Positions 15,001 through 21,000 are shown, numbered from the stretch's first letter. The stretch is DNA of 24,000 nt from Pseudomonas soli (GCF_900110655.1 NZ_FOEQ01000002.1:520648-544647), one strand, 5' to 3'. Numbers: made by a program.

Positions 15001-18000
15001 CCACCCAGCTTCACCCAGGGCGCCAGCAGCAAGACGCCGGTACTCACCTGGATCAGGGCGATCAGGTGCGGCGGCGTGCCGGTCAGACGCTTGATGATCA
15101 GCGCCGCCACGGCATACAGAAACGCCGCACCCAGCGCCAAGGCGATGCCCTGCAGGTACTCGCCACCACTGGCCTGCCCCGCGCCATGAGCGCTGACGAT
15201 GGCCAGCATGCCGAGGAACGCCACGCTCAGCCAGGTGAGTTTGGCCAAGGTGATCTTCTCGCCCAGGAACAGCGCCGCCAGCCCCACCAGCATGAACGGC
15301 TGGACGTTGTACACCGCGGTGCCGATGGCGATCGATGCCCGCGAATAAGAGGCGAACAGCAGTACCCAGTTACCGACGATCGCCACCCCGCTGACCACCG
15401 CCAGCAGGAAAGTCGCACGGGTCAGCACGCCCGGTTTGAGGAGGCCCATGGCCGCGCAGATAAGCAGCAAGGTGCCTGCACCGAACACGCAACGCCAGAA
15501 CACCACCTCCAGCACCGGCTGCCCGGACACCAGCACGAACCAGCCGATGGTCCCGGAAATCAGCATGGCGGCGATCATTTCCAACGAACCACGGCGCAAC
15601 GAATTGTCCATCTCACACCTCCAGTCGACGATGGGCACAGTATGCGGAGGGTTGAGGCTGACCTTCCAGCGGATAACCAAGGCAGATCAGTAACTGCACC
15701 TTTACTATCAAGGCAAATTTGGAAAATCACCTAACGAGGTAGCCATGACCGATGACATTGACCAGTTGCTGATCAACGCCCTGATGGAGGACTCGCGCCG
15801 CTCGCTCAAGGCACTGGCGCAGATCAGCGGCCTGTCGGCGCCCAGCGTCAGCGAGCGCCTGCGCCGCCTGGAGGAGCGCGGCGTGCTGCGCGGCTACACG
15901 GTAGAGGTGGACCCGCGCTGTTTCGGCTATCAGTTGCAGGCCATCGTGCGCATCCGCCCGCTGCCGGGGCAGTTGCAGGAGGTGGAACGGCAGATCGTCG
16001 CCATCCCCGAGTTCACCGAGTGCGACAAGGTGACCGGCGAGGACTGCTTCATCGCCCGCCTGCATGTGCGCTCGATGGAACAGTTGGACACGCTGCTCGA
16101 CCGCCTGAATGTGCTGGCCGAGACCAATACCGCGATCATCAAGAAGACGCCGGTGAAGCGGCGGTTGCCGCCGATGGACTGAGAAGGTCCGGCAGTGCAG
16201 ACGTCAGCCGACGCATGTTTCAGCCGGAACACGCACCGAACGTGTCCAGAAGTTGATCGACAGCGACGTACTCAACGAAGTGACTTGATGAAACCAGCCT
16301 TCAGGCAAGAACAGCAGGTCGCCAGGCCTCAGTCGAACGGGCAGGAATTCCACATTCCGGGCTGTCGGGAAATCCTCCCAGTTCGGCTTGTCCGGATTGA
16401 AATCACATCCTTCCAGGCCGCCATCCGGTGAAGTCGCCCAACTGCCCAAGGCCTCGCGATGATGCGGTGCGGCCAGCAGCATCGATTTCTCACCCCACAC
16501 CTGGGCAAACAGATTGTCGCTGTCATCTCGGTGAAGTGGCGTCAGCGTGCCCTTCGGGCCCAGCCAGAACCTTGGCGCTATATACTGTGCCCGCTCGAAC
16601 AACTCGGGAAACCGGATCAGTTGAAGCCATTGCTGCGGTACCTGATTGTTTCCCATGTACACAGCGGGTTCGTCACCGGTCGGCCCACTCGCCTCTTCCA
16701 TCCCGGCGACGAAATCCACCACCCTGGTGGCCTTGAACTCACGCTCGGAAGAGAACGCATGGTCGGCGTAGTGCCCGTGCCGACTGATGCCCTGTACGTC
16801 GGCAAAATGCTCCAGGGCTTGCCCCATCGACATCTTCGCCAATGGCCAATCGTCGAGTGCCGAGCTAAGCACCAAGGGTTTGCCGGCTGCCCGGTAACGG
16901 GTTGTGAACTCGTGTACCGAAAGCTGTCGCGCGGTACGCCGCTCGATCCCGCCACGCATGTCCAGACGAGCCGATAATTGCTCGCTGAAGCGAGGGCGAG
17001 CCGGGTAGCGGCGGTCCATTTCCACCCGTTCCCCATCGCCGCCATGCAATGCTCGACTGACCAGGCGCGGAAGCAATGTCGCCAGCCCGAGGCGGCCGTC
17101 GATTTTCAGCTGCCCTTGGGCAAAGAGCGCTTCGATATCGGACTGCCCCTGCATGATTGCGAGAAACACTGACGTGTCCATGGCGATGGTCACATCTGCC
17201 TGTGAATGCATGCCCGCATGAACCTGGGTGCAAGCCGGCGCACGCACCCAGAAGTGTTGCTGCCCGGAAAACACGAACTGGAAGGTACCGGCAACCCCCA
17301 CTTCATTGGCTCGCGCAAACAATGACGACAGCGCGGATTGCACTAACATGTCGACCTCCGATCAAGTCGCTTCAGGCTACTTTGCGAAGACAGTTCCGTG
17401 CCCACGCGTCACACCCTCCATTTCGGAGCGTTCGGCCAGTGCGCCATCGAACGAGATCAACCTGTCCGTCGTGGCTTTCCAGTCGGCCAGACGGTGATAG
17501 GCATTGATGAACCAGCTGAGATTCTCGCAAAGGTTGCCGAACGCCGAGTTGATCTGCATGACGTCACCAAACTGGATGGCACCGGAAAAGAAGCGCGGAA
17601 CCGCCAGCAGGCTACTGAACACCAGCGAGAGCTGGCTGTAACTCTCGGTGAACAACGAAAGACGCATCTTCACGCGGATAGTGCGGCGCATGTTGGCCAG
17701 GCTGACATCGAGCTTTTCACTGATGCGGTCTTTTTCGCCATTGCGGCCTGACTGATCCCCCTGCTCGCAGGAGTGGTCCCGGAAACGGATGAGGAAATAT
17801 CGCAGATCCGCCTCGGAACGCTGTTGATTATTGCTCAAGGAGACCAGTTTGAAGCCGATTTTCTGGCTGATGAAGGTGCCCAGCAGCGCGTAGAAAATGG
17901 CAGCCCAGAACATGTAGGCGGGGATATTCAAGCCCCACAGTTGCGCACCGCCTGAAATACCGATCAACACCACGCTGAACGAGACCACGCTGGCCAGGGT

Positions 18001-21000
18001 GTAGAACAGGCCACAGGCCAGGTCGATGGTCTCGAACGTGAACTTATTGATGTCTTCGGCAATGCGCTGATCGGGATTGTCAACCTGCCGCTCGATCTGA
18101 TCGGGACGATTCGATTCGACGACCCAGGCAGACAAGTAGTGATTGGTCAGCCAGCGACGCCATCTCAGCGCGAAGACGTCGACCCAATAGGTAATCAGCA
18201 CCGAACGAAACACCGAGAACAGCACAATGGCAATGAACACCAGCACCAGTCGATAGAAGGAGTAGGCATCGAGTTCTTGAATGGCATTATAGAAGTGCTT
18301 GTACCATTCATTGATCGCCAGTGCGGTGGCCACCGCCAGAAGGGACAGCACCCCCAATGCCAGCAGTGAGCACCAGGCGAAAAGCTTTTCTTCACTCTTC
18401 CAGTACAACGACACCAAACAAAAAGTTTTACGAAAAAATGACGACTTTTCGGAGGCGCCATTACCCCCACTGGAAAATTTCGAGTTCATTGACATCACGG
18501 AATATAAATTAATTATTAGCGGAGCCTGTATTGCCCCCAATAAAAACTCTGAACGGACTGTCTGACCGTCGCGCACAGGGTCATCACACTAAAAGTACAT
18601 CTAACAAAATCCACCACGCTTTGCGATCACACCGATGACACCGGCAACCGCCAACTTCCCCTTGACGACGTATTCCACGATACACCACAACCCTCAGGCG
18701 CGTTTAACTTTACCCTTTTCCCCGGCCAACACACGAAGCGTCAGCGTTATCGCCAATGCCATCAACGTGTACTTCATGTAAATATTAATCATCCAATAGT
18801 CGGCCGCTGTCCCCACCGCTATTCCGATCGATATCGTCACGACCATGACGACGAGAGAGTTCATGGGCACATTCCAGATCACCTATTTCTGATGCCACGT
18901 ATTTACGTCGGCAGAATGGCTTAAAGCCACTACTGATGCTAAGTCTATCGCCAGCGTACCGCTCCCGACACCCTACAGGTGTAGGGATGGCGCGGGGCCG
19001 TTTGCCGCCCCAAATCGAAAGGAAGCTCAAACACCCAGCATTTCGCAGCTATTTCAGTCTCTCCCGACCCTGCGGGCGGGCAACCGTTCAAGATTGACCG
19101 GACTGCCTGCACTGATGGTGGGCCATTGAAAGCATTTCGCAGTCACCCTGTTTTTGCACACCTGCAAGGCACTTTAGCCTTACAGGTGAGCCGCATCACC
19201 CTCTAAAAAAATTTAGACAATGACGGGTGAACAAAATAATAAATCAACAGGTAGATTACCGGCACTGATATCAGCCCCAGCACGCCCTCAGTATTCCAGC
19301 CAAGCTTGATTTTCAGGAGACCGGCCATTTTTTTGAAAAGCACCGCCAACAGCAAGGCCAACACCAAGTCCAAAACATATATCACCCTTACCTCCGATCT
19401 GCGGGTATTGATTTAACTTGTCATCATGAAGAAAGAGGCGACCTCATTTCGAGGCCACCTCTGTCACAACAAACGCTTAAGCGCCAGTCGACGCGCTACC
19501 CCAAAGTCTTGACCCATTACCCGCAATCACTCCGCCACCAAAGCCCAGTGCCGTCCCCGTGGCAATACCGCCAATACCTACAGGTCCGGTGGCAGCTCCC
19601 ACCAGCGCGCCAACCCCTGCCGCTATCGCCAGGTCAGCTGCATTGATACTTCCACCACCGGTTTGGTTACCCAGATAGGTAGCAACTCCAGCCACTGCCC
19701 CGCCTACAGCCCCAACCGGACCAAAAGCGCCAGCCACCATCTCGAGCTCTTCTGCTGTGATATCTCGCATTGTTACAACTCCCTATGATTTCATGGAAAA
19801 ACGTTTGGCATTTACCCTTTGGTACACGCGCGAATCCACTTGTCGTACAGCAGCGATCAAAGCGCCCAGAACCCCAAGCGCCCCAAGCTCGCCGCCAGAC
19901 GCAATCGCGCACGGTGCCAACCATTCAATGCAGCAATATGCTCCTGCTCCGCCATTGCATAGGCGGAAGAAGCATTGAGCAGCTCGATCATGCTGCCCAC
20001 TCCAGAGCGATAACGGCCCTGGACCACGCTCAGGGCGAGCATTGCCTGCTCGACCCACTCGGCGGTTCTGTCCAGCGCCTGGGTCTCGATACCCAGGGCC
20101 TGGTAACTGGCCCACAGCTCCAGCGCCACTCGCTGCCGTGCATCGGCCAGTTCTGCTTCCTGGGCCTGCACCCTGGCCCGGGCACCCCGAACCTGATAGG
20201 TGCGCCCGAACCCTTCGAACAGCGGGATGCTGACCTGAAGACCAACGCTGTTGTCACGGATATGACTATCGCCGTTGTAATCCATGGCTTGATGGGTCTT
20301 CACATCCGACAGCGAGGCAATCAACGACAGCGATGGGCGGCCGGCAGCCTCGCGTTCGGCAACGGCTGCCTTTGCCGCCTCCAGTTTCGCCTTGGCGGCG
20401 ATCAACGCAGGGTGGTCGTTGCCCGCCTGCTCGAGCAGTGCATCCAGGCCTTTGACGAAAGCGGTATCCGGCCGCCGTGTCAGCGTTTGCGCCAGCATCA
20501 GCCGCGCCTGCGGAGCCAGCCCCATGCGCAAGGCGATCTGGCCTTTGGCATCGCGCACCGCCCCCTGGCCGCGGACCAGATTCAGGCTGGCCTGCGAGTA
20601 AGCGGTCTGCGCCTGGAGGCGGTCGCTCAGCGCGGCGGCGCCGGCGTCGAACTTGGCGCTGGCATCCTTGAGGTTTTCCGCGGCCAGCGCAGCAACCTGC
20701 TCGGCGGCCCGCTGCCTGTCCTGAGCGGCCAAGGTGTCGTAGTACAGGCTGGCTGCCTGCACAAAAGCCTCCTGCAAACGCTCATCCTGATTGGCATTGG
20801 CCGCCACCAGCAACTGCCGCGCATTGCGCAGGTCGGCTTCACGCCGGCCGGAATCGAACAGCACCCAGCTCAGGCCCAGACGATGGTCGAGCCGACGTTG
20901 GCGCCCCTGAACCGAGGCGTCCACCGCTTCATAATGGCTGTCGTTGCGCCCACGGCTGTAGGTGGCTGTGGCATCCAGCCTGGGCAGGTACGCCGCCTGC

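Follow-up and report, generated by a model that had tools for sequence, protein, structure and literature searches.

A Predicted Class IIb-Like Microcin Cluster of Pseudomonas soli Ends in an ATPase-Less SbmA/YddA-Type Permease and an SCP2-JmjC Oxygenase

In the enterobacterial class IIb microcins, a siderophore is attached to the peptide by the enzymes MchC/MceJ and MchD/MceI, and, to our knowledge, siderophore-microcins have so far come only from Enterobacteriaceae and carry only catecholate cargo. As far as we know, every characterized member of the SbmA/BacA/Rv1819c permease family is an importer that brings peptides or other hydrophilic cargo to the cytoplasm. For microcin MccE492, MceC, MceI, and MceJ are reported to join a salmochelin moiety to the C terminus of the peptide (PMC6071977). 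Fusions of an SCP2 domain to a JOR/JmjC oxygenase domain were described in pyoverdine gene clusters by Iyer, Abhiman, de Souza, and Aravind in 2010 (PMC2938197). Relatives of these systems stand together in a 24,000-nucleotide stretch of the Pseudomonas soli genome, here called the window (GCF_900110655.1, NZ_FOEQ01000002.1:520648-544647). We concentrated on two adjacent minus-strand genes within it. The upstream gene, at positions 17377 to 18489, encodes a 370-amino-acid permease of the SbmA/YddA type without a nucleotide-binding domain (NBD), recognized by both Pfam and NCBIfam. The downstream gene, at 16204 to 17349, encodes a predicted 2-oxoglutarate oxygenase of 381 amino acids, in which Pfam finds an SCP2 domain (residues ∼1 to 100) followed by a JmjC/Cupin_8 domain (residues ∼143 to 369). 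A first-pass annotation of the window had proposed both reading frames, and both are present on this strand. It had begun the permease at position 18576, but the GTG there only opens the maximal open reading frame (ORF), and the start is most likely the ATG at 18489, giving 370 amino acids as in all homologues and gene calls. Judged by sequence, the permease and oxygenase genes are the last two of a predicted microcin cluster of about 11 kb.

All of the cluster genes in the window lie on the minus strand, and a convergent Lrp-type gene terminates the cluster. The window end cuts the gene for an HlyD-family membrane-fusion protein, of which the C-terminal part is present (23430 to 24000; Pfam HlyD_3). 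It is followed by genes for a 717-amino-acid C39-peptidase ATP-binding cassette (ABC) exporter of the PCAT kind (21266 to 23419; Pfam Peptidase_C39, ABC_membrane, and ABC_tran) and a 470-amino-acid TolC-like outer membrane factor (19857 to 21269; Pfam OEP, 4e-48). Next comes a Gly/Ala-rich microcin precursor of 97 amino acids (19477 to 19770), found by a leader motif scan, with a double-glycine-type leader, MRDITAEELEMVAGA, and the C-terminal end ...WGSASTGA. An orthologue of this precursor, 81% identical, occupies the equivalent position in one related locus (L081), and the related precursor of another (L085) gives a weak match to Pfam MccV. Genes beyond the window end were inferred from three public loci (L171 to L173) that are 99.9% identical to the window across the 7.9 kb compared. 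One of these is from Pseudomonas sp. PONIH3 (L171; CP026386), and another is a JGI metagenome contig (L173). The window HlyD-family protein is 100% identical to a 417-amino-acid protein of these loci. Divergently from hlyD, they encode a 67-amino-acid LuxR/GerE regulator, a 573-amino-acid protein, and a 153-amino-acid HlyC-family acyltransferase.

The 573-amino-acid protein matched no Pfam family, and the combination of an HlyC-family gene with a protein of this kind (573 to 606 amino acids, no Pfam match) raised the candidate of an RTX-type acylated toxin. That candidate was rejected when tblastn identified the large protein as MchC: the annotated MchC from MccH47-type plasmid clusters in Salmonella shares 37% identity with it (E values of 9e-47 to 2e-59), and UniRef likewise gives it the name "MchC protein." At the mchD position, the Salmonella cluster has an ORF with 41% identity (2e-27) to the HlyC-family protein. 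The window HlyD-family protein and the C39 ABC exporter are 27% identical to MchE and 43% identical to MchF, respectively. Together, the MchC, MchD, MchE, and MchF homologues mark the locus as a putative Pseudomonas relative of the class IIb microcin systems. Of the features that define those systems, the window itself holds a precursor with a predicted double-glycine leader, which would be exported by the C39 ABC protein and the membrane-fusion protein; the MchC/MceJ and MchD/MceI homologues lie outside the window, in L171 to L173.

Compared with the gene clusters of MccE492 (mceA to mceJ) and of MccH47 and MccM (mchA to mchF), the P. soli cluster thus shares these four homologues and a Gly-rich double-glycine-leader precursor accompanied by small immunity-type genes; a promoter box suggests that it may also be controlled by iron starvation. 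It differs in its Pseudomonas host, in having neither an IroB-like glycosyltransferase nor an IroD-like esterase, and in encoding its own TolC. The Pseudomonas clusters also add the NBD-less SbmA/YddA-type permease and sometimes the SCP2-JmjC oxygenase, and they carry a PvdS-type iron starvation box rather than a Fur box. No IroB-like or IroD-like gene appears in the gene tables of any cluster that was examined. The precursors end in short stretches rich in Gly, Ser, Ala, and Thr (...WGSASTGA, ...GSGGAGGSLAA, and ...NRLSNGS), unlike the canonical Ser-rich decapeptide of the enterobacterial microcins. The literature that we searched contains no description of this cluster and no class IIb system encoded by Pseudomonas, and the cluster is therefore best filed as a variant of the class IIb kind. 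A Klebsiella plasmid (pmk4 of Klebsiella sp. PL-2018; L177, 7839 to 17510) encodes a radical SAM protein, a methyltransferase, an MchC-like protein, an HlyC-family acyltransferase, an HlyD, a C39 ABC exporter, and a large alpha/beta hydrolase. From this arrangement, MchCD would seem to be a general module for C-terminal conjugation whose cargo genes differ by lineage, and other undescribed C-terminal modifications of microcins may exist. The precursor, MchC-like, and HlyC-family proteins of the P. soli cluster have also been deposited under the nematode Diploscapter pachys (PAV66584 to PAV66588), almost certainly through bacterial contamination of the nematode assembly.

The cluster recurs in genomes and metagenomes in 13 distinct variants: the window (in content the same as L171 to L173), L001, L081 to L083, L084 to L086, L087 and L088, the six single loci L089 to L094, L178, and L179. 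In the layout that we call type A, luxR, mchC, and mchD run divergently from hlyD, the exporter gene, and tolC, after which come the precursor and immunity genes, the permease gene, and the oxygenase gene. In type B, luxR is divergent from a run of hlyD, exporter gene, tolC, permease gene, mchC, mchD, and precursor gene; the oxygenase is missing, and the permease gene abuts mchC-mchD. A third layout, seen in L178 and L179, has the type A order minus the oxygenase. The permease gene follows tolC in all 13 variants (in type A after the precursor and immunity genes), and this position is kept across the P. putida, P. fluorescens, and P. syringae groups and across two gene orders. The oxygenase gene is present in six variants, always directly behind the permease gene, with protein identities down to 52 to 57%, and it is absent from the other seven. 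Since it is missing so often, the two genes do not form an obligate pair; the permease is a core gene and the oxygenase an accessory one. mchC is present wherever the flanking sequence suffices, as is mchD where the sequence extends that far, and the small LuxR/GerE regulator is present in all clusters examined. Relative to the window proteins, the permeases are 70 to 82% identical, on a par with the exporter; MchC and MchD are 35 to 52% identical, and the precursor cores are unrelated. The synteny across the 13 variants bears out the earlier suggestion that the two genes belong to a bacteriocin locus. A survey of neighborhoods for SbmA-like and Cupin_8 genes had also been proposed, and it did find the combination recurring, in 6 of the 13 variants, though not as a fixed pair.

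The permease gave Pfam matches to SbmA_BacA (6e-35) and ABC_membrane_2 (2e-38), and no ABC_tran (nucleotide-binding) domain was found in a Pfam search of its 370 amino acids. It was correctly annotated as ATPase-less, and an NBD is present in every relative at or below 42% identity. The NBD-less family comprises about 78 sequence clusters, 57 to 94% identical and all from Pseudomonas, and this form was found only in these microcin clusters. Its next relatives, at 42 to 45% identity, are YddA-like ABC transporters of 575 to 590 amino acids with an ATPase domain. Among more distant metagenomic loci, all 76 in which the sequence continues past the match have an NBD directly after the membrane domain. 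Because the nearest and the distant relatives all carry an NBD, the ATPase-less form is a derived, lineage-specific feature of these microcin clusters, which arose by loss of the NBD from a full YddA-like ABC transporter of Pseudomonas. The protein is not a classical SbmA orthologue, a possibility that we rejected on a score of 110 bits against the cutoff of 492 for the NCBIfam equivalog PRK11098, with Pseudomonas YddA-like proteins as the nearest relatives. The nearest solved structures by sequence are Rv1819c (1e-34), then SbmA (5e-20), and then the ABCD transporters. The permease shares the transmembrane fold family of the SbmA/BacA and Rv1819c/YddA-type importers and, like SbmA and BacA, has no ATPase domain; it is closer to Rv1819c than to SbmA, and its gene belongs to a cluster of the producer, whereas those importers are uptake routes of the target cell. 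The housekeeping YddA-like paralogue adjoins genes for a two-component system and a dipeptide-binding protein, outside siderophore loci, and its neighborhood provides no direct clue to the substrate of the permease.

Between the two genes is a gap of 27 nucleotides holding a GGAGG Shine-Dalgarno sequence on the minus strand (17355 to 17359), 5 nucleotides before the ATG of the oxygenase gene. The gap and the ribosome-binding site agree with the first-pass annotation; the translational linkage that it read into them does not follow, and only close operonic spacing is evident. The oxygenase matched Pfam SCP2 (1e-10, residues 19 to 96) and Cupin_8 (4e-32, residues 147 to 368). The residues His273, Asp275, His354, and Lys288, already picked out as an intact catalytic set, do not vary among 52 homologues, and in an alignment they correspond to the HxD...H motif and Lys of human JMJD5. 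An AlphaFold model of the protein has a predicted local distance difference test (pLDDT) score of 85 and a predicted template modeling (pTM) score of 0.85. The enzyme had been labeled as resembling factor-inhibiting HIF (FIH), and we replaced this with JMJD5-like, since JMJD5 is the best match both by sequence (1e-19 over residues 143 to 368, compared with 3e-14 for FIH over residues 261 to 375 only) and by fold. The best solved fold match of the model is JMJD5, with a template modeling (TM) score of 0.80 to 0.84 at 24 to 26% identity, followed by JMJD7, TYW5, and FIH. With these human proteins, the oxygenase is predicted to share a JmjC-only double-stranded beta-helix, the HxD...H motif, and the 2-oxoglutarate-binding Lys; it differs in being bacterial and in having an N-terminal SCP2 domain. 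JMJD5 is an arginyl C3-hydroxylase, and JMJD5, JMJD7, and FIH all hydroxylate protein residues.

The SCP2-JmjC family is nearly confined to Pseudomonas and has more than 200 sequence clusters. The fusion had been regarded as undescribed, but it has been in the literature since the 2010 report cited above and is not new. Scanning one genome per species yielded 80 oxygenase loci, of which 79 are of a core type, 52 to 56% identical to the window oxygenase and with no permease nearby. The core-type gene is divergent from genes for a thioesterase and a large PvdL-type nonribosomal peptide synthetase (model PRK05691), i.e., it lies beside pvdG-pvdL; the PvdL-like synthetase is on the opposite strand and extends past the end of the locus. 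An exact TAAAT-N16-CGT box, the PvdS-type iron starvation consensus as cited in PMC2235872, is found 60 to 67 nucleotides upstream of the core-type gene in 77 of these 79 species (loci L002 to L080; for example, at 7934 to 7957 of L002, with the gene at 8001 to 9119). The core-type gene thus appears to be a conserved member of the PvdS regulon. The oxygenases of the microcin clusters form a clade of their own, monophyletic in a neighbor-joining tree. The two-domain architecture and the invariant catalytic and loop residues are common to the window copy and the pyoverdine-locus fusions; the window copy differs in its clade, in its place in a microcin cluster behind a permease rather than beside pvdG-pvdL, and in having no iron starvation box of its own. 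Of 187 alignment columns that are at least 95% conserved in the core clade, 130 keep their residue in the microcin-cluster clade, and there are only six fixed differences, all conservative, which argues for the same chemistry and a similar type of substrate in the two clades. Azotobacter vinelandii, which makes the pyoverdine-like azotobactin, also encodes an SCP2-JmjC homologue (P0328, 67% identical).

In a small sample, the two kinds of oxygenase appear to be distributed in a complementary way. Pseudomonas sp. NPDC090233 (L075) and Pseudomonas sp. QTF5 (L043) have a pyoverdine-locus oxygenase together with a microcin cluster that contains the permease and lacks the oxygenase, and P. syringae has a core-type oxygenase together with a type B cluster. 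Conversely, the oxygenase-bearing clusters with a named host come from P. soli, P. mosselii, P. phoenicis, P. wayambapalatensis, P. monachiensis, and PDM24, and none of these hosts is among the named core-type matches listed. This distribution would fit an oxygenase activity that the cluster requires and that can be supplied from either site. The iron starvation box also links the cluster itself to iron. Of 10 loci, 7 have an exact box 96 to 130 nucleotides upstream of luxR, oriented toward luxR-mchC-mchD. Six of the boxed loci were aligned, and there the box falls in the same column; about 0.05 matches are expected per 24 kb. A scan of eight loci for Fur boxes gave only matches with 5 or 6 mismatches at nonconserved places.

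Our leading explanation, which we hold tentatively, is that the permease and oxygenase genes belong to the cargo side of a class IIb-like microcin linked to pyoverdine. The product would be a ribosomal Gly-rich peptide whose C terminus is conjugated to a cargo before export, the MchC and MchD homologues joining the precursor C terminus to a molecule of the pyoverdine type. The lack of IroB-like and IroD-like genes argues that this cargo would not be salmochelin. The oxygenase would hydroxylate the cargo as its sister enzyme of the pyoverdine locus does, and the SCP2 domain may bind an acyl chain or another hydrophobic part of it. More speculatively, and because all characterized members of its family are importers, the permease might bring a periplasmic or exogenous form of the siderophore into the cytoplasm, where it could become available to the ATP-dependent MchC/MchD step. 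Mature pyoverdine is otherwise restricted to the periplasm, and a return route to the cytoplasm is not known for it. A fuller version joins all of these parts in a Pseudomonas microcin that is conjugated to pyoverdine under PvdS control: MchC and MchD would load the C terminus, the permease would return pyoverdine matured in the periplasm, and the oxygenase, from the cluster or from the pyoverdine locus, would install a hydroxyl group as a handle or for iron binding, the product then entering competitors by their own FpvA-type receptors. As a whole, that chain of steps is doubtful. A siderophore-microcin tied to the pyoverdine regulon would, if real, extend the Trojan horse strategy to Pseudomonas, another major bacterial group, and to another siderophore class. 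It would also give the conserved SCP2-JmjC oxygenase of the PvdS regulon its first function, assign a producer-side role to an SbmA-type importer, and offer a model from nature for siderophore-peptide conjugates directed at Pseudomonas. The value of the finding lies in the pointer to a probable pyoverdine-linked microcin system and in a testable role for two protein families.

Several observations weigh against a cargo role for the two proteins. A cytoplasmic ferribactin cargo would require no importer, so that the two proposed roles, that of the permease and that of the oxygenase, are not both needed. In L171 (14931 to 16042) and L173, the permease gene has a 1-nucleotide deletion beside a run of five G residues and is split into ORFs of 274 or 272 amino acids and of 104 amino acids; the rest of the cluster is intact and 99.9% identical to the window, and the permease is therefore dispensable for viability there. 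The window itself contains no exact iron starvation box (one match with one mismatch is within chance) and no Fur box, so that iron control of the permease and oxygenase genes would at best be indirect, through the regulator or by read-through from the exporter operon. The precursor tail ...WGSASTGA is only loosely like a Ser-rich class IIb tail. The function of the pyoverdine-locus SCP2-JmjC enzyme is not described in the literature that we searched, and the complementary distribution of the two oxygenases rests on few genomes and on absence among the matches listed. Finally, the closest characterized JmjC enzymes act on protein residues, and the precursor contains Asn, Asp, and Arg.

That last point leads to a peptide-tailoring role, also raised in the first-pass annotation, in which the oxygenase acts on the microcin itself, hydroxylating an Asn, Asp, Arg, or Lys residue or the C-terminal tail, and the SCP2 domain holds on to the hydrophobic core, rich in Gly and Ala. 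The core does contain the three Asn and one Asp that had been noted as possible targets; the catalytic residues are intact, the gene lies in the operon region of the precursor, and the nearest characterized relatives, JMJD5, JMJD7, and FIH, are all C3-hydroxylases of protein residues. JmjC enzymes also occur beside secreted Gly-rich peptides in other bacteria (Iyer et al., PMC2938197). The precursors mostly end in -GA or -AA where the oxygenase is present and in -S or -K where it is not, but this correlation is small and confounded by phylogeny. We nonetheless consider tailoring rather unlikely. The sister clade, at 52 to 56% identity, belongs to the pyoverdine locus in about 79 species, which need not have the microcin; six conservative fixed substitutions are all that separate the two clades, the enzyme is conserved although the precursor cores of the oxygenase-bearing clusters are mutually unrelated, and some genomes with the pyoverdine-locus copy have a cluster that lacks the oxygenase. 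The same diversity of cores bears on import-based self-protection, another proposal of the first-pass annotation, which would have the permease draw reentering microcin into the cytoplasm, out of reach of its periplasmic or membrane target, for inactivation by the oxygenase or by proteases. BacA, which imports NCR peptides, is a protective precedent, import into the cytoplasm is what the characterized family members do, and the permease is in every cluster. However, it is 70 to 82% conserved across clusters with unrelated microcin cores, and it is frameshifted in two loci in which precursor and exporter are intact. Small hydrophobic immunity-type ORFs already stand beside the precursor in the window, with gene calls in most related loci, and an oxygenase missing from 7 of 13 variants leaves no fixed import-and-inactivate pair. 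Self-protection is accordingly an unlikely function for the two genes.

The constant place of the permease immediately after TolC and its exporter-like conservation could also reflect an accessory part in type I secretion, or, with a small LuxR/GerE regulator always present, the import of a signal (mature microcin or a siderophore) for that regulator, the oxygenase being a separate add-on. We regard this as improbable, as the 67-amino-acid regulator has no ligand-binding domain and we know of no type I secretion system with an SbmA-type subunit. The first-pass annotation had further considered that the two genes are an unrelated salvage module sharing the island by chance. GC content does differ along the island (0.51 to 0.60, against flanks of 0.64 to 0.70), and a hairpin and a 320-nucleotide spacer lie between the pair and the genes for the precursor and immunity proteins. 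Against this, the position after TolC is kept in all 13 variants, in three Pseudomonas groups and two gene orders, the oxygenase gene follows the permease gene in all six carriers, the permease gene abuts mchC-mchD in type B clusters, and the NBD-less form is found only in these clusters. The constancy of the position after TolC therefore refutes an unrelated hitchhiker, which we consider very improbable.

The remaining features of the cluster lie between the precursor gene and the permease gene, all on the minus strand. A hairpin scan found a GC-rich hairpin with a 13-bp stem immediately 3' of the precursor gene (19434 to 19462), which may be an attenuator or a terminator; this is suggestive only, as such sites were no commoner than chance in the scan. 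It is followed by an ORF for a hydrophobic protein of 60 amino acids (19203 to 19385) with a GGAGG ribosome-binding site and a gene call in L171 and L173, which is a probable immunity protein. A second hydrophobic protein, of 56 amino acids (18694 to 18864), has a gene call in L171 to L173 and no family match in Pfam and NCBIfam searches; it is possibly a second immunity or accessory protein. REP-like palindromes, CCCTACACCTGTAGGG and CCCTACAGGTGTAGGA, occur at about 18955 to 18990, where a 320-nucleotide spacer divides the two small ORFs, and recur in L172 close to the luxR-type gene, at about 8245 to 8270. The low-GC stretch (0.51 to 0.60) spans 16 to 20 kb of a window that otherwise has the 0.64 to 0.70 of a Pseudomonas chromosome. 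Some P. soli strains have ∼1.2 kb of extra DNA 3' of the oxygenase gene, with a second double-glycine-leader precursor (...GLFTRSTSAA; L081/L082, 11846 to 12121, minus strand) and a LuxR-like fragment. This precursor is absent from the window, where the oxygenase gene abuts the Lrp gene (16182/16204). The flanks at 13187 to 14696 and 8380 to 12531 encode an azoreductase-like flavodoxin, an omega-type glutathione S-transferase, a 4HBT thioesterase, an acyl-CoA dehydrogenase, a flavin adenine dinucleotide-dependent monooxygenase, and an asparagine synthase-like protein of 647 amino acids. This flanking gene set is syntenic with L081 and L171 and resembles a separate small-molecule operon.

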